From a virus (Duplodnaviria > Heunggongvirae > Uroviricota > Caudoviricetes): a stretch of DNA of 64,000 nucleotides. The stretch is taken from the IMG/VR virus record IMGVR_UViG_2687453424_000001. One strand, 5' to 3'. A program made the position numbers and the translations under genes. Position 1 is the first letter of the stretch. Each line of letters starts with the position of its first letter. Below, one piece after another: positions 12,043 to 60,502 of the stretch. The notes under the pieces were generated by a model. That model saw nothing but the letters and a program-made list of their open reading frames with translations, had not been told where the DNA came from and ran no database searches.

Positions 12043-12124
12043 CCTGCGAGGGGTCACAGCTCAGCCTGGGCAATGGAACAGGGCATCACGGCCACCGACG
12101 AGAAGTGAAGAGTGACCGACATTG

Positions 12125-25000: not shown

Positions 25001-27718
25001 NNNNNNNNNNNNNNNNNNNNNNNNNNNNNNNNNNNNNNNNNNNNNNNNNNNNNNNNNNNNNNNNNNNNNNNNNNNNNNNNNNNNNNNNNNNNNNNNNNNN
25101 NNNNNNNNNNNNNNNNNNNNNNNNNNNNNNNNNNNNNNNNNNNNNNNNNNNNNNNNNNNNNNNNNNNNNNNNNNNNNNNNNNNNNNNNNNNNNNNNNNNN
25201 NNNNNNNNNNNNNNNNNNNNNNNNNNNNNNNNNNNNNNNNNNNNNNNNNNNNNNNNNNNNNNNNNNNNNNNNNNNNNNNNNNNNNNNNNNNNNNNNNNNN
25301 NNNNNNNNNNNNNNNNNNNNNNNNNNNNNNNNNNNNNNNNNNNNNNNNNNNNNNNNNNNNNNNNNNNNNNNNNNNNNNNNNNNNNNNNNNNNNNNNNNNN
25401 NNNNNNNNNNNNNNNNNNNNNNNNNNNNNNNNNNNNNNNNNNNNNNNNNNNNNNNNNNNNNNNNNNNNNNNNNNNNNNNNNNNNNNNNNNNNNNNNNNNN
25501 NNNNNNNNNNNNNNNNNNNNNNNNNNNNNNNNNNNNNNNNNNNNNNNNNNNNNNNNNNNNNNNNNNNNNNNNNNNNNNNNNNNNNNNNNNNNNNNNNNNN
25601 NNNNNNNNNNNNNNNNNNNNNNNNNNNNNNNNNNNNNNNNNNNNNNNNNNNNNNNNNNNNNNNNNNNNNNNNNNNNNNNNNNNNNNNNNNNNNNNNNNNN
25701 NNNNNNNNNNNNNNNNNNNNNNNNNNNNNNNNNNNNNNNNNNNNNNNNNNNNNNNNNNNNNNNNNNNNNNNNNNNNNNNNNNNNNNNNNNNNNNNNNNNN
25801 NNNNNNNNNNNNNNNNNNNNNNNNNNNNNNNNNNNNNNNNNNNNNNNNNNNNNNNNNNNNNNNNNNNNNNNNNNNNNNNNNNNNNNNNNNNNNNNNNNNN
25901 NNNNNNNNNNNNNNNNNNNNNNNNNNNNNNNNNNNNNNNNNNNNNNNNNNNNNNNNNNNNNNNNNNNNNNNNNNNNNNNNNNNNNNNNNNNNNNNNNNNN
26001 NNNNNNNNNNNNNNNNNNNNNNNNNNNNNNNNNNNNNNNNNNNNNNNNNNNNNNNNNNNNNNNNNNNNNNNNNNNNNNNNNNNNNNNNNNNNNNNNNNNN
26101 NNNNNNNNNNNNNNNNNNNNNNNNNNNNNNNNNNNNNNNNNNNNNNNNNNNNNNNNNNNNNNNNNNNNNNNNNNNNNNNNNNNNNNNNNNNNNNNNNNNN
26201 NNNNNNNNNNNNNNNNNNNNNNNNNNNNNNNNNNNNNNNNNNNNNNNNNNNNNNNNNNNNNNNNNNNNNNNNNNNNNNNNNNNNNNNNNNNNNNNNNNNN
26301 NNNNNNNNNNNNNNNNNNNNNNNNNNNNNNNNNNNNNNNNNNNNNNNNNNNNNNNNNNNNNNNNNNNNNNNNNNNNNNNNNNNNNNNNNNNNNNNNNNNN
26401 NNNNNNNNNNNNNNNNNNNNNNNNNNNNNNNNNNNNNNNNNNNNNNNNNNNNNNNNNNNNNNNNNNNNNNNNNNNNNNNNNNNNNNNNNNNNNNNNNNNN
26501 NNNNNNNNNNNNNNNNNNNNNNNNNNNNNNNNNNNNNNNNNNNNNNNNNNNNNNNNNNNNNNNNNNNNNNNNNNNNNNNNNNNNNNNNNNNNNNNNNNNN
26601 NNNNNNNNNNNNNNNNNNNNNNNNNNNNNNNNNNNNNNNNNNNNNNNNNNNNNNNNNNNNNNNNNNNNNNNNNNNNNNNNNNNNNNNNNNNNNNNNNNNN
26701 NNNNNNNNNNNNNNNNNNNNNNNNNNNNNNNNNNNNNNNNNNNNNNNNNNNNNNNNNNNNNNNNNNNNNNNNNNNNNNNNNNNNNNNNNNNNNNNNNNNN
26801 NNNNNNNNNNNNNNNNNNNNNNNNNNNNNNNNNNNNNNNNNNNNNNNNNNNNNNNNNNNNNNNNNNNNNNNNNNNNNNNNNNNNNNNNNNNNNNNNNNNN
26901 NNNNNNNNNNNNNNNNNNNNNNNNNNNNNNNNNNNNNNNNNNNNNNNNNNNNNNNNNNNNNNNNNNNNNNNNNNNNNNNNNNNNNNNNNNNNNNNNNNNN
27001 NNNNNNNNNNNNNNNNNNNNNNNNNNNNNNNNNNNNNNNNNNNNNNNNNNNNNNNNNNNNNNNNNNNNNNNNNNNNNNNNNNNNNNNNNNNNNNNNNNNN
27101 NNNNNNNNNNNNNNNNNNNNNNNNNNNNNNNNNNNNNNNNNNNNNNNNNNNNNNNNNNNNNNNNNNNNNNNNNNNNNNNNNNNNNNNNNNNNNNNNNNNN
27201 NNNNNNNNNNNNNNNNNNNNNNNNNNNNNNNNNNNNNNNNNNNNNNNNNNNNNNNNNNNNNNNNNNNNNNNNNNNNNNNNNNNNNNNNNNNNNNNNNNNN
27301 NNNNNNNNNNNNNNNNNNNNNNNNNNNNNNNNNNNNNNNNNNNNNNNNNNNNNNNNNNNNNNNNNNNNNNNNNNNNNNNNNNNNNNNNNNNNNNNNNNNN
27401 NNNNNNNNNNNNNNNNNNNNNNNNNNNNNNNNNNNNNNNNNNNNNNNNNNNNNNNNNNNNNNNNNNNNNNNNNNNNNNNNNNNNNNNNNNNNNNNNNNNN
27501 NNNNNNNNNNNNNNNNNNNNNNNNNNNNNNNNNNNNNNNNNNNNNNNNNNNNNNNNNNNNNNNNNNNNNNNNNNNNNNNNNNNNNNNNNNNNNNNNNNNN
27601 NNNNNNNNNNNNNNNNNNNNNNNNNNNNNNNNNNNNNNNNNNNNNNNNNNNNNNNNNNNNNNNNNNNNNNNNNNNNNNNNNNNNNNNNNNNNNNNNNNNN
27701 NNNNNNNNNNNNNNNNNN
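22074..27718. other. N-run, 5645 nt
   Basis: Uninterrupted n characters. Confidence 1.
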
Positions 27719-28584: not shown

Positions 28585-28680
28585 GAGCTGGACAAAGCAC
28601 TGCTTCAGAGCAAACCTGACTCCCATCCAACCTGGCCTTGAACACTGCGAAGGATGGGGCAGCCACAGCTTCTCTGCTGG
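28585..28680. mobile_element. Avian interspersed repeat fragment (same family as 12125-12290)
   Basis: ccatccaacctggccttgaacactgcgaaggatggggcagccacagcttctctg. Confidence 0.4.
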
Positions 28681-28757
28681 TTAGGGTTCTCTGCTGGGTT
28701 AGGGTTAGGGTTAGGGTTTTAGGGGGTTAGGGCGTTAGGGGGTTAGGGCGTTAGGGT
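28681..28757 (+). repeat. Short degenerate (TTAGGG)n tract abutting vector sequence
   Basis: ttagggtt...gttagggttagggttagggttttagggggttagggcgttagggggttagggcgttagggt, immediately followed by lambda cos-fragment sequence. Confidence 0.8.
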
Positions 28758-29106
28758 AAAAAGCTCGCTTTCAGCACCTGTCGTTTCCTTTCTTTTCAGA
28801 GGGTATTTTAAATAAAAACATTAAGTTATGACGAAGAAGAACGGAAACGCCTTAAACCGGAAAATTTTCATAAATAGCGAAAACCCGCGAGGTCGCCGCC
28901 CCGTAACCTGTCGGATCACCGGAAAGGACCCGTAAAGTGATAATGATTATCATCTACATATCACAACGTGCGTGGAGGCCATCAAACCACGTCAAATAAT
29001 CAATTATGACGCAGGTATCGTATTAATTGATCTGCATCAACTTAACGTAAAAACAACTTCAGACAATACAAATCAGCGACACTGAATACGGGGCAACCTC
29101 ATGTCC
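28758..29106. other. cos: Bacteriophage lambda cos fragment of a cosmid/BAC vector (joined left and right lambda ends; cosN at ~28890-28901), followed by a SacI-NruI-SacI-SalI linker at 29107-29126
   Basis: Reverse complement of the lambda left end (GGGCGGCGACCTCGCGGGTTTTCGCTATTTATGAAAATTTTCCGG...GCTGAAAGCGAGCTTTTT) joined to the lambda right end (...CCGACAGGTTACG). The right-arm part ends ...ACGGGGCAACCTCATGTCC and is followed by gagctcgcgagctcgtcgac, as in F-based BAC/fosmid vectors. Confidence 0.85.
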
Positions 29107-29349
29107 GAGCTCGCGAGCTCGTCGACAGCGACACACTTGCATCGGATGCAGCCCGGTTAACGTGCCGGCACGGCCTGGGTAACCAGGTATTTTGTCCACA
29201 TAACCGTGCGCAAAATGTTGTGGATAAGCAGGACACAGCAGCAATCCACAGCAGGCATACAACCGCACACCGAGGTTACTCCGTTCTACAGGTTACGACG
29301 ACATGTCAATACTTGCCCTTGACAGGCATTGATGGAATCGTAGTCTCAC

Positions 29350-29435
29350 GCTGATAGTCTGATCGACAATACAAGTGGGACCGTGGTCCCAGACCGATAA
29401 TCAGACCGACAACACGAGTGGGATCGTGGTCCCAG
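29350..29435. repeat. sopC: sopC (parC) centromere-like 43-bp repeats, part before the N-run
   Basis: Units containing the inverted repeat tgggaccgtggtccca spaced by ~43 bp, the F-plasmid partition site. Confidence 0.8.
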
Positions 29436-32400
29436 NNNNNNNNNNNNNNNNNNNNNNNNNNNNNNNNNNNNNNNNNNNNNNNNNNNNNNNNNNNNNNNNN
29501 NNNNNNNNNNNNNNNNNNNNNNNNNNNNNNNNNNNNNNNNNNNNNNNNNNNNNNNNNNNNNNNNNNNNNNNNNNNNNNNNNNNNNNNNNNNNNNNNNNNN
29601 NNNNNNNNNNNNNNNNNNNNNNNNNNNNNNNNNNNNNNNNNNNNNNNNNNNNNNNNNNNNNNNNNNNNNNNNNNNNNNNNNNNNNNNNNNNNNNNNNNNN
29701 NNNNNNNNNNNNNNNNNNNNNNNNNNNNNNNNNNNNNNNNNNNNNNNNNNNNNNNNNNNNNNNNNNNNNNNNNNNNNNNNNNNNNNNNNNNNNNNNNNNN
29801 NNNNNNNNNNNNNNNNNNNNNNNNNNNNNNNNNNNNNNNNNNNNNNNNNNNNNNNNNNNNNNNNNNNNNNNNNNNNNNNNNNNNNNNNNNNNNNNNNNNN
29901 NNNNNNNNNNNNNNNNNNNNNNNNNNNNNNNNNNNNNNNNNNNNNNNNNNNNNNNNNNNNNNNNNNNNNNNNNNNNNNNNNNNNNNNNNNNNNNNNNNNN
30001 NNNNNNNNNNNNNNNNNNNNNNNNNNNNNNNNNNNNNNNNNNNNNNNNNNNNNNNNNNNNNNNNNNNNNNNNNNNNNNNNNNNNNNNNNNNNNNNNNNNN
30101 NNNNNNNNNNNNNNNNNNNNNNNNNNNNNNNNNNNNNNNNNNNNNNNNNNNNNNNNNNNNNNNNNNNNNNNNNNNNNNNNNNNNNNNNNNNNNNNNNNNN
30201 NNNNNNNNNNNNNNNNNNNNNNNNNNNNNNNNNNNNNNNNNNNNNNNNNNNNNNNNNNNNNNNNNNNNNNNNNNNNNNNNNNNNNNNNNNNNNNNNNNNN
30301 NNNNNNNNNNNNNNNNNNNNNNNNNNNNNNNNNNNNNNNNNNNNNNNNNNNNNNNNNNNNNNNNNNNNNNNNNNNNNNNNNNNNNNNNNNNNNNNNNNNN
30401 NNNNNNNNNNNNNNNNNNNNNNNNNNNNNNNNNNNNNNNNNNNNNNNNNNNNNNNNNNNNNNNNNNNNNNNNNNNNNNNNNNNNNNNNNNNNNNNNNNNN
30501 NNNNNNNNNNNNNNNNNNNNNNNNNNNNNNNNNNNNNNNNNNNNNNNNNNNNNNNNNNNNNNNNNNNNNNNNNNNNNNNNNNNNNNNNNNNNNNNNNNNN
30601 NNNNNNNNNNNNNNNNNNNNNNNNNNNNNNNNNNNNNNNNNNNNNNNNNNNNNNNNNNNNNNNNNNNNNNNNNNNNNNNNNNNNNNNNNNNNNNNNNNNN
30701 NNNNNNNNNNNNNNNNNNNNNNNNNNNNNNNNNNNNNNNNNNNNNNNNNNNNNNNNNNNNNNNNNNNNNNNNNNNNNNNNNNNNNNNNNNNNNNNNNNNN
30801 NNNNNNNNNNNNNNNNNNNNNNNNNNNNNNNNNNNNNNNNNNNNNNNNNNNNNNNNNNNNNNNNNNNNNNNNNNNNNNNNNNNNNNNNNNNNNNNNNNNN
30901 NNNNNNNNNNNNNNNNNNNNNNNNNNNNNNNNNNNNNNNNNNNNNNNNNNNNNNNNNNNNNNNNNNNNNNNNNNNNNNNNNNNNNNNNNNNNNNNNNNNN
31001 NNNNNNNNNNNNNNNNNNNNNNNNNNNNNNNNNNNNNNNNNNNNNNNNNNNNNNNNNNNNNNNNNNNNNNNNNNNNNNNNNNNNNNNNNNNNNNNNNNNN
31101 NNNNNNNNNNNNNNNNNNNNNNNNNNNNNNNNNNNNNNNNNNNNNNNNNNNNNNNNNNNNNNNNNNNNNNNNNNNNNNNNNNNNNNNNNNNNNNNNNNNN
31201 NNNNNNNNNNNNNNNNNNNNNNNNNNNNNNNNNNNNNNNNNNNNNNNNNNNNNNNNNNNNNNNNNNNNNNNNNNNNNNNNNNNNNNNNNNNNNNNNNNNN
31301 NNNNNNNNNNNNNNNNNNNNNNNNNNNNNNNNNNNNNNNNNNNNNNNNNNNNNNNNNNNNNNNNNNNNNNNNNNNNNNNNNNNNNNNNNNNNNNNNNNNN
31401 NNNNNNNNNNNNNNNNNNNNNNNNNNNNNNNNNNNNNNNNNNNNNNNNNNNNNNNNNNNNNNNNNNNNNNNNNNNNNNNNNNNNNNNNNNNNNNNNNNNN
31501 NNNNNNNNNNNNNNNNNNNNNNNNNNNNNNNNNNNNNNNNNNNNNNNNNNNNNNNNNNNNNNNNNNNNNNNNNNNNNNNNNNNNNNNNNNNNNNNNNNNN
31601 NNNNNNNNNNNNNNNNNNNNNNNNNNNNNNNNNNNNNNNNNNNNNNNNNNNNNNNNNNNNNNNNNNNNNNNNNNNNNNNNNNNNNNNNNNNNNNNNNNNN
31701 NNNNNNNNNNNNNNNNNNNNNNNNNNNNNNNNNNNNNNNNNNNNNNNNNNNNNNNNNNNNNNNNNNNNNNNNNNNNNNNNNNNNNNNNNNNNNNNNNNNN
31801 NNNNNNNNNNNNNNNNNNNNNNNNNNNNNNNNNNNNNNNNNNNNNNNNNNNNNNNNNNNNNNNNNNNNNNNNNNNNNNNNNNNNNNNNNNNNNNNNNNNN
31901 NNNNNNNNNNNNNNNNNNNNNNNNNNNNNNNNNNNNNNNNNNNNNNNNNNNNNNNNNNNNNNNNNNNNNNNNNNNNNNNNNNNNNNNNNNNNNNNNNNNN
32001 NNNNNNNNNNNNNNNNNNNNNNNNNNNNNNNNNNNNNNNNNNNNNNNNNNNNNNNNNNNNNNNNNNNNNNNNNNNNNNNNNNNNNNNNNNNNNNNNNNNN
32101 NNNNNNNNNNNNNNNNNNNNNNNNNNNNNNNNNNNNNNNNNNNNNNNNNNNNNNNNNNNNNNNNNNNNNNNNNNNNNNNNNNNNNNNNNNNNNNNNNNNN
32201 NNNNNNNNNNNNNNNNNNNNNNNNNNNNNNNNNNNNNNNNNNNNNNNNNNNNNNNNNNNNNNNNNNNNNNNNNNNNNNNNNNNNNNNNNNNNNNNNNNNN
32301 NNNNNNNNNNNNNNNNNNNNNNNNNNNNNNNNNNNNNNNNNNNNNNNNNNNNNNNNNNNNNNNNNNNNNNNNNNNNNNNNNNNNNNNNNNNNNNNNNNNN

Positions 32401-33845
32401 NNNNNNNNNNNNNNNNNNNNNNNNNNNNNNNNNNNNNNNNNNNNNNNNNNNNNNNNNNNNNNNNNNNNNNNNNNNNNNNNNNNNNNNNNNNNNNNNNNNN
32501 NNNNNNNNNNNNNNNNNNNNNNNNNNNNNNNNNNNNNNNNNNNNNNNNNNNNNNNNNNNNNNNNNNNNNNNNNNNNNNNNNNNNNNNNNNNNNNNNNNNN
32601 NNNNNNNNNNNNNNNNNNNNNNNNNNNNNNNNNNNNNNNNNNNNNNNNNNNNNNNNNNNNNNNNNNNNNNNNNNNNNNNNNNNNNNNNNNNNNNNNNNNN
32701 NNNNNNNNNNNNNNNNNNNNNNNNNNNNNNNNNNNNNNNNNNNNNNNNNNNNNNNNNNNNNNNNNNNNNNNNNNNNNNNNNNNNNNNNNNNNNNNNNNNN
32801 NNNNNNNNNNNNNNNNNNNNNNNNNNNNNNNNNNNNNNNNNNNNNNNNNNNNNNNNNNNNNNNNNNNNNNNNNNNNNNNNNNNNNNNNNNNNNNNNNNNN
32901 NNNNNNNNNNNNNNNNNNNNNNNNNNNNNNNNNNNNNNNNNNNNNNNNNNNNNNNNNNNNNNNNNNNNNNNNNNNNNNNNNNNNNNNNNNNNNNNNNNNN
33001 NNNNNNNNNNNNNNNNNNNNNNNNNNNNNNNNNNNNNNNNNNNNNNNNNNNNNNNNNNNNNNNNNNNNNNNNNNNNNNNNNNNNNNNNNNNNNNNNNNNN
33101 NNNNNNNNNNNNNNNNNNNNNNNNNNNNNNNNNNNNNNNNNNNNNNNNNNNNNNNNNNNNNNNNNNNNNNNNNNNNNNNNNNNNNNNNNNNNNNNNNNNN
33201 NNNNNNNNNNNNNNNNNNNNNNNNNNNNNNNNNNNNNNNNNNNNNNNNNNNNNNNNNNNNNNNNNNNNNNNNNNNNNNNNNNNNNNNNNNNNNNNNNNNN
33301 NNNNNNNNNNNNNNNNNNNNNNNNNNNNNNNNNNNNNNNNNNNNNNNNNNNNNNNNNNNNNNNNNNNNNNNNNNNNNNNNNNNNNNNNNNNNNNNNNNNN
33401 NNNNNNNNNNNNNNNNNNNNNNNNNNNNNNNNNNNNNNNNNNNNNNNNNNNNNNNNNNNNNNNNNNNNNNNNNNNNNNNNNNNNNNNNNNNNNNNNNNNN
33501 NNNNNNNNNNNNNNNNNNNNNNNNNNNNNNNNNNNNNNNNNNNNNNNNNNNNNNNNNNNNNNNNNNNNNNNNNNNNNNNNNNNNNNNNNNNNNNNNNNNN
33601 NNNNNNNNNNNNNNNNNNNNNNNNNNNNNNNNNNNNNNNNNNNNNNNNNNNNNNNNNNNNNNNNNNNNNNNNNNNNNNNNNNNNNNNNNNNNNNNNNNNN
33701 NNNNNNNNNNNNNNNNNNNNNNNNNNNNNNNNNNNNNNNNNNNNNNNNNNNNNNNNNNNNNNNNNNNNNNNNNNNNNNNNNNNNNNNNNNNNNNNNNNNN
33801 NNNNNNNNNNNNNNNNNNNNNNNNNNNNNNNNNNNNNNNNNNNNN
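29436..33845. other. N-run, 4410 nt, lying inside the sopC repeat array
   Basis: Uninterrupted n characters with sopC repeats on both flanks. Confidence 1.
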
Positions 33846-34020
33846 TCTGATTATCAGACCGACGATACGAGTGGGACCGTGGTCCCAGACTAATAATCAG
33901 ACCGACGATACGAGTGGGACCGTGGTCCCAGACTAATAATCAGACCGACGATACGAGTGGGACCGTGGTCCCAGTCTGATTATCAGACCGACGATACAAG
34001 TGGAACAGTGGGCCCAGAGA
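33846..34020. repeat. sopC: sopC (parC) 43-bp repeats, part after the N-run
   Basis: Three to four units of cagaccgacgatacgagtgggaccgtggtcccagactaataat. Confidence 0.85.
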
Positions 34021-34105
34021 GAATATTCAGGCCAGTTATGCTTTCTGGCCTGTAACAAAGGACATTAAGTAAAGACAGATAAACGTAGACTAAAACGTGG
34101 TCGCA

Positions 34106-35077
34106 TCAGGGTGCTGGCTTTTCAAGTTCCTTAAGAATGGCCTCAATTTTCTCTATACACTCAGTTGGAACACGAGACCTGTCCAGGTTAAGCACCATTT
34201 TATCGCCCTTATACAATACTGTCGCTCCAGGAGCAAACTGATGTCGTGAGCTTAAACTAGTTCTTGATGCAGATGACGTTTTAAGCACAGAAGTTAAAAG
34301 AGTGATAACTTCTTCAGCTTCAAATATCACCCCAGCTTTTTTCTGCTCATGAAGGTTAGATGCCTGCTGCTTAAGTAATTCCTCTTTATCTGTAAAGGCT
34401 TTTTGAAGTGCATCACCTGACCGGGCAGATAGTTCACCGGGGTGAGAAAAAAGAGCAACAACTGATTTAGGCAATTTGGCGGTGTTGATACAGCGGGTAA
34501 TAATCTTACGTGAAATATTTTCCGCATCAGCCAGCGCAGAAATATTTCCAGCAAATTCATTCTGCAATCGGCTTGCATAACGCTGACCACGTTCATAAGC
34601 ACTTGTTGGGCGATAATCGTTACCCAATCTGGATAATGCAGCCATCTGCTCATCATCCAGCTCGCCAACCAGAACACGATAATCACTTTCGGTAAGTGCA
34701 GCAGCTTTACGACGGCGACTCCCATCGGCAATTTCTATGACACCAGATACTCTTCGACCGAACGCCGGTGTCTGTTGACCAGTCAGTAGAAAAGAAGGGA
34801 TGAGATCATCCAGTGCGTCCTCAGTAAGCAGCTCCTGGTCACGTTCATTACCTGACCATACCCGAGAGGTCTTCTCAACACTATCACCCCGGAGCACTTC
34901 AAGAGTAAACTTCACATCCCGACCACATACAGGCAAAGTAATGGCATTACCGCGAGCCATTACTCCTACGCGCGCAATTAACGAATCCACCATCGGGGCA
35001 GCTGGTGTCGATAACGAAGTATCTTCAACCGGTTGAGTATTGAGCGTATGTTTTGGAATAACAGGCGCACGCTTCAT
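34106..35077 (-). CDS. sopB: F-plasmid partition protein SopB (ParB), 323 aa
   Basis: Full-length ORF whose translation I recognise as F SopB ([22 protein letters not shown]...). The start overlaps the sopA stop by 1 nt (taATG), as in F. Confidence 0.95.
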
Positions 35078-36252
35078 TATCTAATCTCCCAGCGTGGTTT
35101 AATCAGACGATCGAAAATTTCATTGCAGACAGGTTCCCAAATAGAAAGAGCATTTCTCCAGGCACCAGTTGAAGAGCGTTGATCAATGGCCTGTTCAAAA
35201 ACAGTTCTCATCCGGATCTGACCTTTACCAACTTCATCCGTTTCACGTACAACATTTTTTAGAACCATGCTTCCCCAGGCATCCCGAATTTGCTCCTCCA
35301 TCCACGGGGACTGAGAGCCATTACTATTGCTGTATTTGGTAAGCAAAATACGTACATCAGGCTCGAACCCTTTAAGATCAACGTTCTTGAGCAGATCACG
35401 AAGCATATCGAAAAACTGCAGTGCGGAGGTGTAGTCAAACAACTCAGCAGGCGTGGGAACAATCAGCACATCAGCAGCACATACGACATTAATCGTGCCG
35501 ATACCCAGGTTAGGCGCGCTGTCAATAACTATGACATCATAGTCATGAGCAACAGTTTCAATGGCCAGTCGGAGCATCAGGTGTGGATCGGTGGGCAGTT
35601 TACCTTCATCAAATTTGCCCATTAACTCAGTTTCAATACGGTGCAGAGCCAGACAGGAAGGAATAATGTCAAGCCCCGGCCAGCAAGTGGGCTTTATTGC
35701 ATAAGTGACATCGTCCTTTTCCCCAAGATAGAAAGGCAGGAGAGTGTCTTCTGCATGAATATGAAGATCTGGTACCCATCCGTGATACATTGAGGCTGTT
35801 CCCTGGGGGTCGTTACCTTCCACGAGCAAAACACGTAGCCCCTTCAGAGCCAGATCCTGAGCAAGATGAACAGAAACTGAGGTTTTGTAAACGCCACCTT
35901 TATGGGCAGCAACCCCGATCACCGGTGGAAATACGTCTTCAGCACGTCGCAATCGCGTACCAAACACATCACGCATATGATTAATTTGTTCAATTGTATA
36001 ACCAACACGTTGCTCAACCCGTCCTCGAATTTCCATATCCGGGTGCGGTAGTCGCCCTGCTTTCTCGGCATCTCTGATAGCCTGAGAAGAAACCCCAACT
36101 AAATCCGCTGCTTCACCTATTCTCCAGCGCCGGGTTATTTTCCTCGCTTCCGGGCTGTCATCATTAAACTGTGCAATGGCGATAGCCTTCGTCATTTCAT
36201 GACCAGCGTTTATGCACTGGTTAAGTGTTTCCATGAGTTTCATTCTGAACAT
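35077..36252 (-). CDS. sopA: F-plasmid partition ATPase SopA (ParA), 391-aa ORF
   Basis: Translation matches F SopA, including the deviant Walker A motif ([19 protein letters not shown]). The annotated start may be the internal Met 3 codons downstream (MKLMETLNQ). Confidence 0.95.
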
Positions 36253-36559
36253 CCTTTAATCATTGCTTTGCGTTTTTTTATTAAATCTTGCAATTTACTG
36301 CAAAGCAACAACAAAATCGCAAAGTCATCAAAAAACCGCAAAGTTGTTTAAAATAAGAGCAACACTACAAAAGGAGATAAGAAGAGCACATACCTCAGTC
36401 ACTTATTATCACTAGCGCTCGCCGCAGCCGTGTAACCGAGCATAGCGAGCGAACTGGCGAGGAAGCAAAGAAGAACTGTTCTGTCAGATAGCTCTTACGC
36501 TCAGCGCAAGAAGAAATATCCACCGTGGGAAAAACTCCAGGTAGAGGTACACACGCGGA

Positions 36560-36830
36560 TAGCCAATTCAGAGTAATAAACTGTGATAATCAACCCTCAT
36601 CAATGATGACGAACTAACCCCCGATATCAGGTCACATGACGAAGGGAAAGAGAAGGAAATCAACTGTGACAAACTGCCCTCAAATTTGGCTTCCTTAAAA
36701 ATTACAGTTCAAAAAGTATGAGAAAATCCATGCAGGCTGAAGGAAACAGCAAAACTGTGACAAATTACCCTCAGTAGGTCAGAACAAATGTGACGAACCA
36801 CCCTCAAATCTGTGACAGATAACCCTCAGA
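36560..36830. promoter_or_regulatory. incC: incC iteron region of the F replicon (RepE-binding direct repeats)
   Basis: Repeated tgtgaca(a/g)a(c/t)(t/c)(g/a)ccctca(a/g) elements between sopA and repE (e.g. tgtgacaaactgccctcaaat, tgtgacaaattaccctcag, tgtgacgaaccaccctcaaat, tgtgacagataaccctcag). Confidence 0.75.
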
Positions 36831-37900
<1,070 letters not shown>

Positions 37901-38359
37901 GTTTTTTCAGGCATCGTGTGTAAGCAGAATATATAAGTGCTGTTCCCTGGTGCTTCCTCGCTCACTCGAGGGCTTCGCCCTGTCGCTCGACTGCGGCGAG
38001 CACTACTGGCTGTAAAAGGACAGACCACATCATGGTTCTGTGTTCATTAGGTTGTTCTGTCCATTGCTGACATAATCCGCTCCACTTCAACGTAACACCG
38101 CACGAAGATTTCTATTGTTCCTGAAGGCATATTCAAATCGTTTTCGTTACCGCTTGCAGGCATCATGACAGAACACTACTTCCTATAAACGCTACACAGG
38201 CTCCTGAGATTAATAATGCGGATCTCTACGATAATGGGAGATTTTCCCGACTGTTTCGTTCGCTTCTCAGTGGATAACAGCCAGCTTCTCTGTTTAACAG
38301 ACAAAAACAGCATATCCACTCAGTTCCACATTTCCATATAAAGGCCAAGGCATTTATTC

Positions 38360-38810
38360 TCAGGATAATTGTTTCAGCATCGCAACCGCATCAGACTCCG
38401 GCATCGCAAACTGCACCCGGTGCCGGGCAGCCACATCCAGCGCAAAAACCTTCGTGTAGACTTCCGTTGAACTGATGGACTTATGTCCCATCAGGCTTTG
38501 CAGAACTTTCAGCGGTATACCGGCATACAGCATGTGCATCGCATAGGAATGGCGGAACGTATGTGGTGTGACCGGAACAGAGAACGTCACACCGTCAGCA
38601 GCAGCGGCGGCAACCGCCTCCCCAATCCAGGTCCTGACCGTTCTGTCCGTCACTTCCCAGATCCGCGCTTTCTCTGTCCTTCCTGTGCGACGGTTACGCC
38701 GCTCCATGAGCTTATCGCGAATAAATACCTGTGACGGAAGATCACTTCGCAGAATAAATAAATCCTGGTGTCCCTGTTGATACCGGGAAGCCCTGGGCCA
38801 ACTTTTGGCG
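38360..38810 (-). CDS. resD: Tyrosine site-specific recombinase ResD (labelled redF in BAC vector maps), C-terminal ~150 aa only; N-terminus lost in N-run
   Basis: Visible translation ...VTPHTFRHSYAMHMLYAGIPLKVLQSLMGHKSISSTEVYTKVF... carries tyrosine-recombinase box II (HxxR) and the catalytic Tyr context; its position beside ori2 fits the F/BAC backbone. Confidence 0.8.
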
Positions 38811-41800
38811 NNNNNNNNNNNNNNNNNNNNNNNNNNNNNNNNNNNNNNNNNNNNNNNNNNNNNNNNNNNNNNNNNNNNNNNNNNNNNNNNNNNNNNNNNN
38901 NNNNNNNNNNNNNNNNNNNNNNNNNNNNNNNNNNNNNNNNNNNNNNNNNNNNNNNNNNNNNNNNNNNNNNNNNNNNNNNNNNNNNNNNNNNNNNNNNNNN
39001 NNNNNNNNNNNNNNNNNNNNNNNNNNNNNNNNNNNNNNNNNNNNNNNNNNNNNNNNNNNNNNNNNNNNNNNNNNNNNNNNNNNNNNNNNNNNNNNNNNNN
39101 NNNNNNNNNNNNNNNNNNNNNNNNNNNNNNNNNNNNNNNNNNNNNNNNNNNNNNNNNNNNNNNNNNNNNNNNNNNNNNNNNNNNNNNNNNNNNNNNNNNN
39201 NNNNNNNNNNNNNNNNNNNNNNNNNNNNNNNNNNNNNNNNNNNNNNNNNNNNNNNNNNNNNNNNNNNNNNNNNNNNNNNNNNNNNNNNNNNNNNNNNNNN
39301 NNNNNNNNNNNNNNNNNNNNNNNNNNNNNNNNNNNNNNNNNNNNNNNNNNNNNNNNNNNNNNNNNNNNNNNNNNNNNNNNNNNNNNNNNNNNNNNNNNNN
39401 NNNNNNNNNNNNNNNNNNNNNNNNNNNNNNNNNNNNNNNNNNNNNNNNNNNNNNNNNNNNNNNNNNNNNNNNNNNNNNNNNNNNNNNNNNNNNNNNNNNN
39501 NNNNNNNNNNNNNNNNNNNNNNNNNNNNNNNNNNNNNNNNNNNNNNNNNNNNNNNNNNNNNNNNNNNNNNNNNNNNNNNNNNNNNNNNNNNNNNNNNNNN
39601 NNNNNNNNNNNNNNNNNNNNNNNNNNNNNNNNNNNNNNNNNNNNNNNNNNNNNNNNNNNNNNNNNNNNNNNNNNNNNNNNNNNNNNNNNNNNNNNNNNNN
39701 NNNNNNNNNNNNNNNNNNNNNNNNNNNNNNNNNNNNNNNNNNNNNNNNNNNNNNNNNNNNNNNNNNNNNNNNNNNNNNNNNNNNNNNNNNNNNNNNNNNN
39801 NNNNNNNNNNNNNNNNNNNNNNNNNNNNNNNNNNNNNNNNNNNNNNNNNNNNNNNNNNNNNNNNNNNNNNNNNNNNNNNNNNNNNNNNNNNNNNNNNNNN
39901 NNNNNNNNNNNNNNNNNNNNNNNNNNNNNNNNNNNNNNNNNNNNNNNNNNNNNNNNNNNNNNNNNNNNNNNNNNNNNNNNNNNNNNNNNNNNNNNNNNNN
40001 NNNNNNNNNNNNNNNNNNNNNNNNNNNNNNNNNNNNNNNNNNNNNNNNNNNNNNNNNNNNNNNNNNNNNNNNNNNNNNNNNNNNNNNNNNNNNNNNNNNN
40101 NNNNNNNNNNNNNNNNNNNNNNNNNNNNNNNNNNNNNNNNNNNNNNNNNNNNNNNNNNNNNNNNNNNNNNNNNNNNNNNNNNNNNNNNNNNNNNNNNNNN
40201 NNNNNNNNNNNNNNNNNNNNNNNNNNNNNNNNNNNNNNNNNNNNNNNNNNNNNNNNNNNNNNNNNNNNNNNNNNNNNNNNNNNNNNNNNNNNNNNNNNNN
40301 NNNNNNNNNNNNNNNNNNNNNNNNNNNNNNNNNNNNNNNNNNNNNNNNNNNNNNNNNNNNNNNNNNNNNNNNNNNNNNNNNNNNNNNNNNNNNNNNNNNN
40401 NNNNNNNNNNNNNNNNNNNNNNNNNNNNNNNNNNNNNNNNNNNNNNNNNNNNNNNNNNNNNNNNNNNNNNNNNNNNNNNNNNNNNNNNNNNNNNNNNNNN
40501 NNNNNNNNNNNNNNNNNNNNNNNNNNNNNNNNNNNNNNNNNNNNNNNNNNNNNNNNNNNNNNNNNNNNNNNNNNNNNNNNNNNNNNNNNNNNNNNNNNNN
40601 NNNNNNNNNNNNNNNNNNNNNNNNNNNNNNNNNNNNNNNNNNNNNNNNNNNNNNNNNNNNNNNNNNNNNNNNNNNNNNNNNNNNNNNNNNNNNNNNNNNN
40701 NNNNNNNNNNNNNNNNNNNNNNNNNNNNNNNNNNNNNNNNNNNNNNNNNNNNNNNNNNNNNNNNNNNNNNNNNNNNNNNNNNNNNNNNNNNNNNNNNNNN
40801 NNNNNNNNNNNNNNNNNNNNNNNNNNNNNNNNNNNNNNNNNNNNNNNNNNNNNNNNNNNNNNNNNNNNNNNNNNNNNNNNNNNNNNNNNNNNNNNNNNNN
40901 NNNNNNNNNNNNNNNNNNNNNNNNNNNNNNNNNNNNNNNNNNNNNNNNNNNNNNNNNNNNNNNNNNNNNNNNNNNNNNNNNNNNNNNNNNNNNNNNNNNN
41001 NNNNNNNNNNNNNNNNNNNNNNNNNNNNNNNNNNNNNNNNNNNNNNNNNNNNNNNNNNNNNNNNNNNNNNNNNNNNNNNNNNNNNNNNNNNNNNNNNNNN
41101 NNNNNNNNNNNNNNNNNNNNNNNNNNNNNNNNNNNNNNNNNNNNNNNNNNNNNNNNNNNNNNNNNNNNNNNNNNNNNNNNNNNNNNNNNNNNNNNNNNNN
41201 NNNNNNNNNNNNNNNNNNNNNNNNNNNNNNNNNNNNNNNNNNNNNNNNNNNNNNNNNNNNNNNNNNNNNNNNNNNNNNNNNNNNNNNNNNNNNNNNNNNN
41301 NNNNNNNNNNNNNNNNNNNNNNNNNNNNNNNNNNNNNNNNNNNNNNNNNNNNNNNNNNNNNNNNNNNNNNNNNNNNNNNNNNNNNNNNNNNNNNNNNNNN
41401 NNNNNNNNNNNNNNNNNNNNNNNNNNNNNNNNNNNNNNNNNNNNNNNNNNNNNNNNNNNNNNNNNNNNNNNNNNNNNNNNNNNNNNNNNNNNNNNNNNNN
41501 NNNNNNNNNNNNNNNNNNNNNNNNNNNNNNNNNNNNNNNNNNNNNNNNNNNNNNNNNNNNNNNNNNNNNNNNNNNNNNNNNNNNNNNNNNNNNNNNNNNN
41601 NNNNNNNNNNNNNNNNNNNNNNNNNNNNNNNNNNNNNNNNNNNNNNNNNNNNNNNNNNNNNNNNNNNNNNNNNNNNNNNNNNNNNNNNNNNNNNNNNNNN
41701 NNNNNNNNNNNNNNNNNNNNNNNNNNNNNNNNNNNNNNNNNNNNNNNNNNNNNNNNNNNNNNNNNNNNNNNNNNNNNNNNNNNNNNNNNNNNNNNNNNNN

Positions 41801-43161
41801 NNNNNNNNNNNNNNNNNNNNNNNNNNNNNNNNNNNNNNNNNNNNNNNNNNNNNNNNNNNNNNNNNNNNNNNNNNNNNNNNNNNNNNNNNNNNNNNNNNNN
41901 NNNNNNNNNNNNNNNNNNNNNNNNNNNNNNNNNNNNNNNNNNNNNNNNNNNNNNNNNNNNNNNNNNNNNNNNNNNNNNNNNNNNNNNNNNNNNNNNNNNN
42001 NNNNNNNNNNNNNNNNNNNNNNNNNNNNNNNNNNNNNNNNNNNNNNNNNNNNNNNNNNNNNNNNNNNNNNNNNNNNNNNNNNNNNNNNNNNNNNNNNNNN
42101 NNNNNNNNNNNNNNNNNNNNNNNNNNNNNNNNNNNNNNNNNNNNNNNNNNNNNNNNNNNNNNNNNNNNNNNNNNNNNNNNNNNNNNNNNNNNNNNNNNNN
42201 NNNNNNNNNNNNNNNNNNNNNNNNNNNNNNNNNNNNNNNNNNNNNNNNNNNNNNNNNNNNNNNNNNNNNNNNNNNNNNNNNNNNNNNNNNNNNNNNNNNN
42301 NNNNNNNNNNNNNNNNNNNNNNNNNNNNNNNNNNNNNNNNNNNNNNNNNNNNNNNNNNNNNNNNNNNNNNNNNNNNNNNNNNNNNNNNNNNNNNNNNNNN
42401 NNNNNNNNNNNNNNNNNNNNNNNNNNNNNNNNNNNNNNNNNNNNNNNNNNNNNNNNNNNNNNNNNNNNNNNNNNNNNNNNNNNNNNNNNNNNNNNNNNNN
42501 NNNNNNNNNNNNNNNNNNNNNNNNNNNNNNNNNNNNNNNNNNNNNNNNNNNNNNNNNNNNNNNNNNNNNNNNNNNNNNNNNNNNNNNNNNNNNNNNNNNN
42601 NNNNNNNNNNNNNNNNNNNNNNNNNNNNNNNNNNNNNNNNNNNNNNNNNNNNNNNNNNNNNNNNNNNNNNNNNNNNNNNNNNNNNNNNNNNNNNNNNNNN
42701 NNNNNNNNNNNNNNNNNNNNNNNNNNNNNNNNNNNNNNNNNNNNNNNNNNNNNNNNNNNNNNNNNNNNNNNNNNNNNNNNNNNNNNNNNNNNNNNNNNNN
42801 NNNNNNNNNNNNNNNNNNNNNNNNNNNNNNNNNNNNNNNNNNNNNNNNNNNNNNNNNNNNNNNNNNNNNNNNNNNNNNNNNNNNNNNNNNNNNNNNNNNN
42901 NNNNNNNNNNNNNNNNNNNNNNNNNNNNNNNNNNNNNNNNNNNNNNNNNNNNNNNNNNNNNNNNNNNNNNNNNNNNNNNNNNNNNNNNNNNNNNNNNNNN
43001 NNNNNNNNNNNNNNNNNNNNNNNNNNNNNNNNNNNNNNNNNNNNNNNNNNNNNNNNNNNNNNNNNNNNNNNNNNNNNNNNNNNNNNNNNNNNNNNNNNNN
43101 NNNNNNNNNNNNNNNNNNNNNNNNNNNNNNNNNNNNNNNNNNNNNNNNNNNNNNNNNNNNN
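38811..43161. other. N-run, 4351 nt, between the resD 5' part and the cat promoter
   Basis: Uninterrupted n characters. Confidence 1.
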
Positions 43162-43275
43162 AAATGAGACGTTGATCGGCACGTAAGAGGTTCCAACTTT
43201 CACCATAATGAAATAAGATCACTACCGGGCGTATTTTTTGAGTTATCGAGATTTTCAGGAGCTAAGGAAGCTAAA
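43162..43275 (+). promoter_or_regulatory. Tn9 cat promoter and RBS region
   Basis: Sequence immediately upstream of cat (...ttttgagttatcgagattttcaggagctaaggaagctaaaATG) is the standard cat cassette leader. Confidence 0.8.
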
Positions 43276-43935
43276 ATGGAGAAAAAAATCACTGGATATA
43301 CCACCGTTGATATATCCCAATGGCATCGTAAAGAACATTTTGAGGCATTTCAGTCAGTTGCTCAATGTACCTATAACCAGACCGTTCAGCTGGATATTAC
43401 GGCCTTTTTAAAGACCGTAAAGAAAAATAAGCACAAGTTTTATCCGGCCTTTATTCACATTCTTGCCCGCCTGATGAATGCTCATCCGGAATTTCGTATG
43501 GCAATGAAAGACGGTGAGCTGGTGATATGGGATAGTGTTCACCCTTGTTACACCGTTTTCCATGAGCAAACTGAAACGTTTTCATCGCTCTGGAGTGAAT
43601 ACCACGACGATTTCCGGCAGTTTCTACACATATATTCGCAAGATGTGGCGTGTTACGGTGAAAACCTGGCCTATTTCCCTAAAGGGTTTATTGAGAATAT
43701 GTTTTTCGTCTCAGCCAATCCCTGGGTGAGTTTCACCAGTTTTGATTTAAACGTGGCCAATATGGACAACTTCTTCGCCCCCGTTTTCACCATGGGCAAA
43801 TATTATACGCAAGGCGACAAGGTGCTGATGCCGCTGGCGATTCAGGTTCATCATGCCGTTTGTGATGGCTTCCATGTCGGCAGAATGCTTAATGAATTAC
43901 AACAGTACTGCGATGAGTGGCAGGGCGGGGCGTAA
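43276..43935 (+). CDS. cat: Chloramphenicol acetyltransferase (Tn9 type I CAT), 219 aa
   Basis: Full-length [76 protein letters not shown]...[28 protein letters not shown]. Confidence 0.97.
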
Positions 43936-43947
43936 TTTTTTTAAGGC

Positions 43948-44202
43948 CATAGGCAAGGTGAGTTTACACGCGCCATTGTATATCGCGTTCCTACACGCCT
44001 GCCGGTTGGCGACATCAGCCGGCAACATGAGAATGGAAATGGCGGCGATGGAGAGCCCGAAAACGACGACGAATTTGGGGAAATACGCTTGGTTAGCGTC
44101 GTCCGGGTGCTGGTAATTGACGAGGAGGTAGACATTGAAGAGGAACACTAGGACGCATACGATTATGGCGACGATTACCAGAGCGAGGTTGAAATCGCCC
44201 AT
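43948..44202 (-). CDS. Plant LMBR1-like membrane protein, first coding exon, truncated by the vector junction
   Basis: Minus-strand translation from ATG at 44202..44200 reads MGDFNLALVIVAIIVCVLVFLFNVYLLVNYQHPDDANQAYFPKFVVVFGLSIAAISILMLPADVANRQACRNAIYNGACKLTLPM, which I recall as the conserved N-terminus of plant LMBR1-like proteins. Similarity stops where cat-downstream vector sequence begins (~43946). Confidence 0.6.
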
Positions 44203-45378
44203 CGTTAAAAGCCCTCGACTCGATTCGAATCGAATCGATAGCGGTAGATTCAACAGGAGATTTGAGAAATTAGGGTTTGCTTTTAACCCTTCGAATTTTA
44301 ATTCGAAGAATTTCGTAGATCTGAGCTTTCCTCTGTGTGTGTGTGTTTTTTTGAAAGGGAAAGGGGGGAGGTTGGGCTCCGGTGAGGTGGTTTGTTGAAT
44401 TTTGGGGTTAATTTTGACGTGTTGGAATTAAATGACGTTATTATCCTTGTGAATTGGTTAAATGACGGGTTGAAAATAGCGAGGAAGAGAGTTGCAGATG
44501 GGGTTGAATGTAACATCACCTTATATTCCCGTGACAAGCATCGAACCAGCCTGTCCAAGGCAAGAAGTTGTTTTTTAAAAAAAAAATTTACATGTAAGAA
44601 ATAACGCTATTTGAACTTTTAGACCGCTTTCTTTATCTTTTATTCCCGTAGAGAAATTCTCTCAATTTTGTTCTTTTTTTTTCCTCAAATCTTTTATTGT
44701 TCTTAATTATACCCTTCAATTGATATAAAAAAATAATTAGTAATTCTTTTTAGGTACGTAAGATTGAGATACTATTATGAATGAAAATTCTAGCTCAAGC
44801 TCCTCACATTTTATTAACGAACTCTTAAATTTTAATTTAAAACTAAACAAGTTTTTAATTTTAACAAAGATTTAACTGTCATTAGATTCGATGTTAATTG
44901 ACTTTTTTACTCACATGATATATTACTTGACGAATTAACATGATAATGTGATTGTTGACGTGGCTAAAAAAATATAATGAGTTTGGTCACATTAGTTGCG
45001 CGTGACCTCACCAATTCACTAAATCATATATCATGTGGACAGGAAAAATAATTAATATTGACTCTAATATTGATTAAATTTTTATTAAAATTAAAAGCTT
45101 GTTCGATTTTAAATCAAAATTTAAGAGTTTGTTTGAATGCAATAATTAAATAAATGATGATAGTACGTAAAATGTTTTTAGGATTGAAGCCATAATTTTA
45201 AGACAATATAAGCAACAAGTGTCTTATTTACTCATGTTCTCACCTAAAGACTTTTTTATGTTGTTACTTAGTGCATGTTTGGTTTAACTTTTTTTCAGTT
45301 TATCTATTTATTGAAAGTAAAAGTTAGGCCAAATATAATATTTTGAAAAACTCTTAAAAAAAAGTAACTTTTTTTAAG

Positions 45379-48300: not shown

Positions 48301-49520
48301 NNNNNNNNNNNNNNNNNNNNNNNNNNNNNNNNNNNNNNNNNNNNNNNNNNNNNNNNNNNNNNNNNNNNNNNNNNNNNNNNNNNNNNNNNNNNNNNNNNNN
48401 NNNNNNNNNNNNNNNNNNNNNNNNNNNNNNNNNNNNNNNNNNNNNNNNNNNNNNNNNNNNNNNNNNNNNNNNNNNNNNNNNNNNNNNNNNNNNNNNNNNN
48501 NNNNNNNNNNNNNNNNNNNNNNNNNNNNNNNNNNNNNNNNNNNNNNNNNNNNNNNNNNNNNNNNNNNNNNNNNNNNNNNNNNNNNNNNNNNNNNNNNNNN
48601 NNNNNNNNNNNNNNNNNNNNNNNNNNNNNNNNNNNNNNNNNNNNNNNNNNNNNNNNNNNNNNNNNNNNNNNNNNNNNNNNNNNNNNNNNNNNNNNNNNNN
48701 NNNNNNNNNNNNNNNNNNNNNNNNNNNNNNNNNNNNNNNNNNNNNNNNNNNNNNNNNNNNNNNNNNNNNNNNNNNNNNNNNNNNNNNNNNNNNNNNNNNN
48801 NNNNNNNNNNNNNNNNNNNNNNNNNNNNNNNNNNNNNNNNNNNNNNNNNNNNNNNNNNNNNNNNNNNNNNNNNNNNNNNNNNNNNNNNNNNNNNNNNNNN
48901 NNNNNNNNNNNNNNNNNNNNNNNNNNNNNNNNNNNNNNNNNNNNNNNNNNNNNNNNNNNNNNNNNNNNNNNNNNNNNNNNNNNNNNNNNNNNNNNNNNNN
49001 NNNNNNNNNNNNNNNNNNNNNNNNNNNNNNNNNNNNNNNNNNNNNNNNNNNNNNNNNNNNNNNNNNNNNNNNNNNNNNNNNNNNNNNNNNNNNNNNNNNN
49101 NNNNNNNNNNNNNNNNNNNNNNNNNNNNNNNNNNNNNNNNNNNNNNNNNNNNNNNNNNNNNNNNNNNNNNNNNNNNNNNNNNNNNNNNNNNNNNNNNNNN
49201 NNNNNNNNNNNNNNNNNNNNNNNNNNNNNNNNNNNNNNNNNNNNNNNNNNNNNNNNNNNNNNNNNNNNNNNNNNNNNNNNNNNNNNNNNNNNNNNNNNNN
49301 NNNNNNNNNNNNNNNNNNNNNNNNNNNNNNNNNNNNNNNNNNNNNNNNNNNNNNNNNNNNNNNNNNNNNNNNNNNNNNNNNNNNNNNNNNNNNNNNNNNN
49401 NNNNNNNNNNNNNNNNNNNNNNNNNNNNNNNNNNNNNNNNNNNNNNNNNNNNNNNNNNNNNNNNNNNNNNNNNNNNNNNNNNNNNNNNNNNNNNNNNNNN
49501 NNNNNNNNNNNNNNNNNNNN
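45379..49520. other. N-run, 4142 nt
   Basis: Uninterrupted n characters. Confidence 1.
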
Positions 49521-55200: not shown

Positions 55201-55463
55201 CATGTGGATCTAGGTAACTACTTTGCATCCTCACCTTTTTTACACGAAAGGTTGCTTTGGAAATAGTCTAGCTTCATTCTTAACCCTGCTCCCAATTTAC
55301 AACAGCAGGCTGTTCATCACCCTTAATGGTTCCCAGAACTTGAAATTTGCTCCTATCTGATGTTGTGCTGTAACTGATCTTTTGCAGAATCGCAGAGGCT
55401 GCTGGAACTTGCCCCATTTGCCGTCGGAACATGAAGAAAGTGAGGAAGATTTTCACAGTATAA
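52235..55463 (+). CDS. Plant APD-like transmembrane RING-type (C3HC4) E3 ubiquitin ligase gene, predicted 10 exons, ~488 aa
   Basis: Manual gene model: exons 52235..52568, 52680..52786, 52896..53021 (GC donor), 53111..53204, 53342..53416, 53494..53576, 54315..54461, 54701..54773, 54862..55213, 55388..55463, total 1467 nt in frame. Acceptors are AG and donors GT apart from one GCAAGT. The C-terminus carries RING motif [41 protein letters not shown] split by the last intron; hydrophobic segments and a Ser/Ala-rich N-terminus are present. Individual splice boundaries are less certain than the gene call. Confidence 0.7.
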
Positions 55464-59700: not shown

Positions 59701-60502
59701 NNNNNNNNNNNNNNNNNNNNNNNNNNNNNNNNNNNNNNNNNNNNNNNNNNNNNNNNNNNNNNNNNNNNNNNNNNNNNNNNNNNNNNNNNNNNNNNNNNNN
59801 NNNNNNNNNNNNNNNNNNNNNNNNNNNNNNNNNNNNNNNNNNNNNNNNNNNNNNNNNNNNNNNNNNNNNNNNNNNNNNNNNNNNNNNNNNNNNNNNNNNN
59901 NNNNNNNNNNNNNNNNNNNNNNNNNNNNNNNNNNNNNNNNNNNNNNNNNNNNNNNNNNNNNNNNNNNNNNNNNNNNNNNNNNNNNNNNNNNNNNNNNNNN
60001 NNNNNNNNNNNNNNNNNNNNNNNNNNNNNNNNNNNNNNNNNNNNNNNNNNNNNNNNNNNNNNNNNNNNNNNNNNNNNNNNNNNNNNNNNNNNNNNNNNNN
60101 NNNNNNNNNNNNNNNNNNNNNNNNNNNNNNNNNNNNNNNNNNNNNNNNNNNNNNNNNNNNNNNNNNNNNNNNNNNNNNNNNNNNNNNNNNNNNNNNNNNN
60201 NNNNNNNNNNNNNNNNNNNNNNNNNNNNNNNNNNNNNNNNNNNNNNNNNNNNNNNNNNNNNNNNNNNNNNNNNNNNNNNNNNNNNNNNNNNNNNNNNNNN
60301 NNNNNNNNNNNNNNNNNNNNNNNNNNNNNNNNNNNNNNNNNNNNNNNNNNNNNNNNNNNNNNNNNNNNNNNNNNNNNNNNNNNNNNNNNNNNNNNNNNNN
60401 NNNNNNNNNNNNNNNNNNNNNNNNNNNNNNNNNNNNNNNNNNNNNNNNNNNNNNNNNNNNNNNNNNNNNNNNNNNNNNNNNNNNNNNNNNNNNNNNNNNN
60501 NN
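56743..60502. other. N-run, 3760 nt
   Basis: Uninterrupted n characters. Confidence 1.

Follow-up and report, generated by a model that had tools for sequence, protein, structure and literature searches.

Oversized N-runs in a composite of avian-type, BAC vector and cacao DNA, probably gap placeholders of uninformative length

Comparison with reference sequences led us to consider the long N-runs that interrupt the F-based BAC backbone of this viral record as probable gap placeholders, whose length says nothing about the missing sequence and would have been estimated by a scaffolder working on contaminated or composite sequence, a reading to which we assign a probability of about 0.6. The window, i.e., the whole stretch of 64,000 nucleotides that was analyzed, combines avian subtelomeric DNA with a truncated BAC backbone and with chromosome sequence of Theobroma cacao, and this composite is not biological. 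For each of the four N-runs comparable with references, the 3760 to 4410 N of the window stand for 1 to 215 bp, in agreement with the suspicion, expressed in the initial annotation, that the gap sizes are not those of real sequence. As 215 bp and one base of ordinary vector are what the two vector N-runs replace, and as the same kind of mismatch is found in plant DNA, the anomaly is an artefact of assembly or data processing and not biology. The record holds no biological novelty.

Composition of the window and identity of its vector backbone

Three sources follow one another in the window, namely avian-type subtelomeric DNA (1-28757), truncated vector (28758-43947) and, from 43948 to 64000, DNA of Theobroma cacao. 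The long N-runs, eight in number (3580-5645 N each), and one run of 20 N bring the total to 36354 N, which is 57% of all bases in the window. The N-runs had initially been described as an anomaly of the vector backbone; they are indeed present there, at exactly 29436-33845 (4410 N) and 38811-43161 (4351 N) and made up of N only, but they are not confined to it. Four of the eight long runs, to which no strand applies, lie in the avian-type part (1774-6838, 8463-12042, 14879-20259 and 22074-27718), together with the short 20-N run (21512-21531), which presumably reflects a minimum-gap convention. Telomere repeats and what we take to be CR1-type repeats were recognized in the avian-type part, and both remain visible and unmasked. 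An olfactory-receptor ORF is also present in this part, and an exact look-up of it gave no entry.

In the vector part, positions 28758-29435, 33846-38810 and 43162-43947 are 100% identical to pBeloBAC11-type/mini-F references (CP036489.1, hereafter L003; NZ_CP053593.1, L001; CP053596.1, L002). Order and spacing, once compared with these references, proved colinear, in the order cos, sopC, sopB, sopA, repE/ori2, resD remnant and cat, with 215 bp and one base of reference sequence at the two N-runs. The phage lambda cos fragment (28758-29105) shows 100% identity to lambda-type phages, an annotated cos site included, and likewise to L003 from position 2822. A 4965-nt alignment with 100% identity to both L001 and L002 spans the annotated sopA and sopB. 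On the minus strand, sopB (ParB-family partition protein, 34106-35077) was mapped from L001 5846-6817, sopA (partition ATPase, 35077-36243) from L001 4680-5846, and the replication initiator repE (36831-37586) from L001 3337-4092; ori2/incC iteron regions flank repE, and iteron-like TGTGACAAA repeats were seen on both sides of it. A truncated remnant of the tyrosine recombinase gene resD (38360-38707, minus strand) was mapped from L002 3586-3933, where it is annotated as "tyrosine-type recombinase/integrase", the annotation in L003 being "resolvase". On the plus strand, the start of a Tn9-derived cat-upstream segment (38718-38810) lies to the left of the second N-run, and the cat promoter and leader, followed by catA1 (43162-43947; CDS 43276-43935), lie to its right, these 786 nt being 100% identical to L003 9302-10087. 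As a replication and partition module, accompanied by cat, the backbone is complete and functional-looking.

The joins between the three sources are abrupt. The vector match starts at 28758, right after avian (TTAGGG)n-like repeats, and stops at 43947 (L003 10087), 12 nt past the cat stop codon, so that the vector ends at arbitrary bases, with telomere repeats on one side and a cacao exon on the other. The reference runs on into loxP, NotI and lacZ-alpha to the left of L003 2822 and into AGTTATTGG...NotI...lacZ to the right of L003 10087, and the window lacks this sequence beyond the vector ends (loxP, lacZ-alpha and the MCS/cloning site). Reading of the sequence revealed no HindIII, BamHI or EcoRI site at either vector join; the nearest GATC in cacao is located 5 nt upstream of the vector join. 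Neither the bird/vector nor the vector/cacao junction had a match in the genome_contigs, metagenome_contigs and viral_contigs collections, which does not prove that the record is unpublished. The truncation of the vector, the missing cloning site and the abrupt joins to avian telomeric and cacao DNA had escaped the initial annotation.

Length of the N-runs compared with reference spacing

The size comparison rests on four reference-testable N-runs, two in the vector and two in cacao, and on independent references: five BAC/mini-F-type vector records (with base-level alignment of three), thousands of natural catA1 plasmids and, for cacao, five assemblies.

The first vector N-run (29436-33845) puts 4410 N in place of 215 bp and replaces exactly five consecutive ACTAATAATC-type sopC units of 43 bp each; the only unrepresented reference bases at sopC are L003 3500-3714, or L001 7078-7292. 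To its left, about two units of 43 bp remain visible (29353-29435; TRF period 43, 1.9 copies) and match L003 at 100% up to position 3499, while about four units are visible to its right (33846-34018; TRF period 43, 3.9 copies), beginning at the first base of a TCTGATTATC-type unit. The break falls between a left contig end in ...CCCAG and a right contig start in TCTGATTATC, which is the point where the unit starts diverge. In the reference, TRF counts 10.7 units. The sopC centromere of the F plasmid is composed of 12 direct repeats of 43 bp (PMC3177203), as stated in the initial annotation. The units of the window share this period of 43 and do not differ from the reference units, but only about six of them are visible. 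The five that are missing correspond to an assembly gap and not to a biological variant.

The second vector N-run (38811-43161) puts 4351 N in place of a single base, one A of GGCGAAAATGAG, in Tn9-derived sequence upstream of cat. Indeed, a 600-nt flank-to-flank query across this N-run aligns to 601 bases in four vector records (600/601 nt), in which the resD remnant is fused to the Tn9 cat cassette, and L003 position 9301 is the only base left unrepresented. Natural catA1 plasmids (e.g., R100) match the query in one piece from 208, which corresponds to window position 38718, to 600, i.e., across the site of the N-run. This N-run had been placed between resD and the cat promoter, described as close neighbours; close neighbours they are, but the N-run is not at their joint, as it lies 93 nt inside a contiguous Tn9-derived segment that starts near 38718. 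The break point, GGCG / AAAATGAG, is in unique sequence, being neither repeat nor low complexity. From these alignments, it is ordinary pBeloBAC11-type backbone that would lie under the vector N-runs, with nothing hidden there.

The N-run oversizing is not specific to the vector but extends to the neighbouring cacao DNA. Here the visible pieces show 99.7-100% identity to the Theobroma cacao Matina 1-6 assembly (L004), and every difference is a change in homopolymer length, which fits the expectation for an independent consensus. The first cacao N-run (45379-49520) puts 4142 N in place of 53 bp of A/T-rich low-complexity sequence; its flanks are located at positions 2030 and 2084 of the Matina 1-6 sequence, which is free of N, and are spaced by 40-57 bp in four other assemblies (L005, L007, L008 and L009), the placement in L006 not being clean. 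The second one (56743-60502) puts 3760 N in place of 24 bp of pure A/T sequence, with flanks at Matina 1-6 positions 9307 and 9332 and the identical 24-bp spacing in L005, L007 and L009.

N length and reference spacing thus compare as 4410 vs. 215, 4351 vs. 1, 4142 vs. 53 and 3760 vs. 24, which leaves an excess (N minus real length) of 4195, 4350, 4089 and 3736, respectively (mean 4092, sd 226). The vector N-runs exceed the sequence that they replace by a factor of about 20 to 4000. In the independent references, each of the four testable N-runs has flanks that are either adjacent or separated by 24-215 bp; no exact suffix/prefix overlap of gap flanks, which would indicate a negative true gap, was found, the flanks of the avian-type N-runs included. 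Contigs end at repeats or low-complexity sequence in three of the four tested gaps (the sopC array and the two A/T stretches), the exception being the gap upstream of cat.

Origin of the N-runs

The reading as scaffold gaps would involve contigs produced by an error-tolerant, overlap-type assembly and broken at repeats and low-complexity stretches. A scaffolder may then have chained these contigs by means of long-insert read pairs, with distance estimates about 4 kb too large, for example as a result of a mis-specified or very imprecise insert size, and the vector would be contamination that was never trimmed. In favor of assembly, the sopC gap removes exactly five near-identical ACTAATAATC units, and the two gaps in cacao are located in A/T low-complexity sequence. 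The single 20-N run and the homopolymer-only differences from the cacao reference are further traits suggestive of an assembly. Against it, the break upstream of cat occurs in non-repeat sequence with the loss of one base, which is odd for an assembler; the abrupt bird/vector and vector/cacao joins lie inside visible "contigs", and no single sample or cloning step explains them; and one size class of N-runs extends over three unrelated sources, which uniform post-processing would fit at least equally well.

These last features are those that make another origin possible, although we hold it to be the less probable one, in which N blocks of about 3.5-5.6 kb were written after assembly into concatenated bird, vector and cacao fragments, and would be neither scaffolder estimates nor masks. 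It accommodates the three unrelated sources with blunt joins devoid of linker or restriction site, the size class common to all three with 57% of the window being N, the break upstream of cat in unique sequence with its single lost base, and the absence of both chimeric junctions from the three public contig collections searched. However, pasting at random would not remove five near-identical sopC units in register, nor would it hit A/T low-complexity sequence at both cacao sites. Moreover, 1-215 bp of real sequence is lost at every tested site, which resembles contig ends and not insertions, and the homopolymer-only differences in cacao point to real, independently assembled contigs.

Masking was the other possibility raised in the initial annotation. 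In its equal-length form, the N-runs would cover real sequence of about 4 kb, with true insertions (cassettes or mobile elements, for instance) in sopC and upstream of cat, and we consider it very improbable. The length of the N-runs is the sole support that the window itself provides, to which may be added that sequence collections are said to hold some masked stretches. This reading was rejected because the flanks are adjacent, or nearly so, in every reference, reference spacing differing from N length at four of four sites. It would, in addition, need each of the two cacao sites to carry an insertion of about 4 kb, in DNA that elsewhere shows 99.7-100% identity to Matina 1-6. Insertion of a transposon or IS into the backbone was rejected as well, since reading of the sequence showed no target-site duplication at either vector site, where one base and 215 bp were lost instead. 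Hard-masking of repeats or low-complexity sequence was also rejected, since telomere arrays and CR1-type repeats were left visible, and since a single base would have been "masked" upstream of cat.

A deliberate, equal-length redaction that covers real, engineered cassettes of about 4 kb in sopC, in the region upstream of cat and in the cacao DNA of a purpose-built construct would mean that something real is hidden from view, and it appears extremely unlikely. No more credible is a genuine BAC clone, i.e., vector plus insert with N-runs as unfinished clone sequence: its replication and partition module and its cat gene would suit such a clone, but this junction was rejected in view of the missing cloning site, lacZ-alpha and loxP, of joins that lie elsewhere than at the reference vector's cloning site and have no restriction site, of "insert" sides that come from bird and plant, and of the excessive length of the vector gaps.

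Significance and comparison with known systems

The importance of these observations is one of data hygiene only, and they raise no question of biology. The window does not represent a contiguous piece of natural DNA, no meaning attaches to coordinates or distances measured across any N-run, and its BAC backbone is untrimmed vector contamination. Findings that rely on neighbourhood or spacing here (of the kind "gene X lies 5 kb from Y") are to be discarded.

The vector part is closest to pBeloBAC11/pIndigoBAC-type mini-F BAC or fosmid backbones, to which the visible 6429 nt of the window are 100% identical and colinear, 6645 nt of reference span being accounted for. L003 carries a pCC1-type oriV insertion, which is missing from the window, L001 and L002 alike. 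By contrast with the reference, the window lacks a part of about 860 bp (loxP, NotI, lacZ-alpha and MCS), its copy is interrupted by two N blocks, and its ends are at arbitrary bases. With regard to the gaps, the window resembles draft-assembly scaffolds, in which N-only runs of variable length separate contigs kept in reference order and orientation (here in vector and cacao), with breaks at a tandem repeat or low-complexity sequence in three of the four tested gaps and, in this window, one short 20-N run. It differs from scaffolds with estimated gap sizes in that the estimates miss the real size by about 3.7-4.35 kb at each of the four testable gaps, and in that one gap lies in unique sequence with a single base lost. 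The window is also comparable to records of vector or cross-species contamination and chimeric joins, in which vector lies between DNA of unrelated organisms without any cloning-site junction. Typical vector contamination, however, is located at the ends of reads or contigs and includes the polylinker, whereas the polylinker is exactly what is missing here and the vector is flanked by a bird telomere and a plant exon.

Vector backbone and its missing bases

Of the window's bases, 36354 (57%) are N, divided among nine runs at 1774-6838 (5065 N), 8463-12042 (3580), 14879-20259 (5381), 21512-21531 (20), 22074-27718 (5645), 29436-33845 (4410), 38811-43161 (4351), 45379-49520 (4142) and 56743-60502 (3760). 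The two vector runs, located exactly where the initial annotation had placed them, are thus two of eight similar-sized runs (3.6-5.6 kb) scattered through the entire window. The run of 20 N is the sole short one, unlike the other eight, and by its appearance presumably reflects a scaffolder's minimum-gap convention.

The vector was compared by local BLAST with NZ_CP053593.1 (L001, pMiniF_lacIq), CP053596.1 (L002) and CP036489.1 (L003, a pCC1-type backbone carrying cos, loxP and lacZ). Order and spacing were checked in this way against pBeloBAC11-type references, and all vector pieces were 100% identical: window 28758-29435 to L003 2822-3499, window 33846-38810 to L001 7077-2113 (4965 nt) and window 43162-43947 to L003 9302-10087. 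Only L003 3500-3714 (215 bp) and L003 9301 (1 base) lacked a counterpart in the window. According to a register printout, the 215 bp missing at 29436-33845 are exactly five successive ACTAATAATC-type sopC units, while the base missing at 38811-43161 is one A of GGCGAAAATGAG. By TRF, the reference has 10.7 of the 43-bp sopC units and the window 1.9 + 3.9; the published number is 12 repeats of 43 bp (PMC3177203).

The lambda cos region was 100% identical to window 28758-29105, and reference annotation, carried over, placed sopB (34106-35077), sopA (35077-36243), repE (36831-37586) and a resD remnant (38360-38707) on the minus strand and cat (43276-43935) on the plus strand. Since the Tn9-derived segment starts at about 38718, the run at 38811-43161 breaks contiguous Tn9 sequence 93 nt in, and does not lie at the resD/cat joint. 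When the 300 nt on each side of this run were joined (600 nt) and searched against a plasmid collection, 601 bases aligned at 99.8% identity with four mini-F/BAC/fosmid-type records, and query positions 208-600, spanning the site of the run, were contiguous in thousands of natural catA1 plasmids. Every defining feature of pBeloBAC11-type mini-F vectors tested was present except the loxP/lacZ-alpha cloning region, and the pCC1 oriV insertion was absent; judged by its sequence, the backbone is a standard vector of this type without that insertion.

It should be noted that L003 ("Rahnella aquatilis plasmid pMEM40-2", 2300-10460) and NZ_CP104070.1 (an "Alicyclobacillus fastidiosus" plasmid) each contain a BAC/fosmid cloning backbone in full, with polylinker, lacZ-alpha, loxP, cos, sopCBA, repE and cat; L003 has an additional block of ~617 bp between repE and the resD remnant, taken as pCC1 oriV. 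Both are probably cloning-vector constructs or contamination rather than natural plasmids of the named species.

Cacao segment as a control

The plant N-runs provided the decisive control for those of the vector. Segment 43948-64000 corresponds to the reverse strand of CM001883.1 (Matina 1-6) at ~825-837 kb. Encoded there are an intron-containing APD-type RING E3 gene (~52.2-55.5 kb), an intronless PDX1 gene (61172-62101) whose protein is exact in six assemblies, GCA_000403535.1 (Matina 1-6, CM001883.1) and GCA_000208745.2 among them, and the 3' end of a minus-strand rhodanese gene (from ~63818). From their accession numbers, we take both assemblies to be Theobroma cacao. Against the N-free Matina 1-6 reference, window 43948-45378, 49521-56742 and 60503-64000 matched positions 596-2030, 2084-9307 and 9332-12829, with 99.7-100% identity across the three pieces. 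All differences were homopolymer-length changes, which, on this comparison, is consistent with a consensus built independently from the same genotype or a very close one. The 4142-N run replaces 53 bp and the 3760-N run 24 bp, both A/T-rich and of low complexity; four other cacao assemblies gave 40-57 bp and ~24 bp.

At the four testable sites, two in vector and two in cacao, the N-runs thus exceed the missing sequence by 4195, 4350, 4089 and 3736 nt (mean 4092, sd 226). We conclude, with a probability of about 0.93, that N length is uninformative and that nothing is hidden. The initial annotation had regarded the vector runs as oversized and offered either unreal gap sizes or deliberate masking; the former is supported at these sites. 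Given the flank spacing of 1-215 bp in the references, equal-length masking is excluded unless four insertions of ~4 kb are assumed, all of them missing from the references, coupled to small deletions and lacking a target-site duplication.

Avian-type segment and chimeric joins

Segment 1-28757 is animal DNA, which we take to be avian from its features. It contains CR1-type 3' ends, a GNYRPVSLT reverse-transcriptase motif and two arrays of vertebrate telomere repeats (21685-22018 and 28670-28756). Both (TTAGGG)n arrays are degenerate, with the G-rich strand 5' to 3'; the former is internal (~51 units, 83% match) and preceded by a GGTCAAA mini-array (21653-21684), and the latter runs right up to the vector join. 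The arrays may mark where distinct source records end, or may be the interstitial and terminal telomere repeats of a bird microchromosome. An olfactory-receptor C-terminal fragment (1087-1428; Pfam 7tm_4, E = 4.9e-12, profile positions 180-277 of 280) is probably a truncated pseudogene, since no upstream coding part was recognisable; the gene-position collection had no entry for its exact product. Two GC-rich repeat families, the first characterised by motifs such as GCAATGCCCGC...CATTCCAGAATG and the second resembling ACCCACAACTGCCCCCAGTGACCCC, recur among the avian-type pieces on both sides of N-runs (8000-8462, 12330-13000, 20480-20560, also 1-290 and 7340-7480), and this sharing suggests that these pieces derive from one repetitive subtelomeric region.

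At 28757/28758, the vector adjoins the avian-type (TTAGGG)n repeats on its lambda cos side; at 43947/43948, unrelated sequence begins 12 nt past the cat stop codon. The loxP, NotI and lacZ-alpha/MCS lying leftward of L003 2822, and AGTTATTGG...NotI...lacZ rightward of 10087, are all absent from the window. The right join meets cacao DNA in the first exon of an LMBR1-domain gene (minus strand, Matina 1-6 gene table). No linker, restriction site or shared k-mer was found at either join, and neither junction was found in genome, metagenome or viral contig collections. No natural molecule, and no normal BAC clone, can unite a bird telomere, a BAC backbone lacking its cloning site and a plant exon.

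Origin of the N-runs

The runs are most plausibly, though far from surely, scaffold gaps whose sizes were badly overestimated, in a sequence that is contaminated or composite. Their break points resemble contig ends of an assembler: at sopC, the left piece ends in ...CCCAG and the right piece begins TCTGATTATC, precisely where unit starts diverge, dropping five near-identical intervening units, and both cacao breaks lie within A/T low-complexity sequence. These assembler-like breaks favour overestimated gaps over the main rival, that N blocks were pasted in during composition of the window or of its source. Such pasting, which we hold to be the less likely origin at roughly one chance in three, accords with the blunt joins of three sources, with the uniform size class that the runs show in unrelated sources and with the break upstream of cat, which falls in unique sequence with the loss of only one base.

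The oversized runs are an artefact without biological content, and the only value of the finding is to warn against trusting distances and adjacency in the window. Compared with scaffold gaps as usually built, the window's N-runs are alike in order and orientation, but their lengths, which should approximate the gaps, do not.
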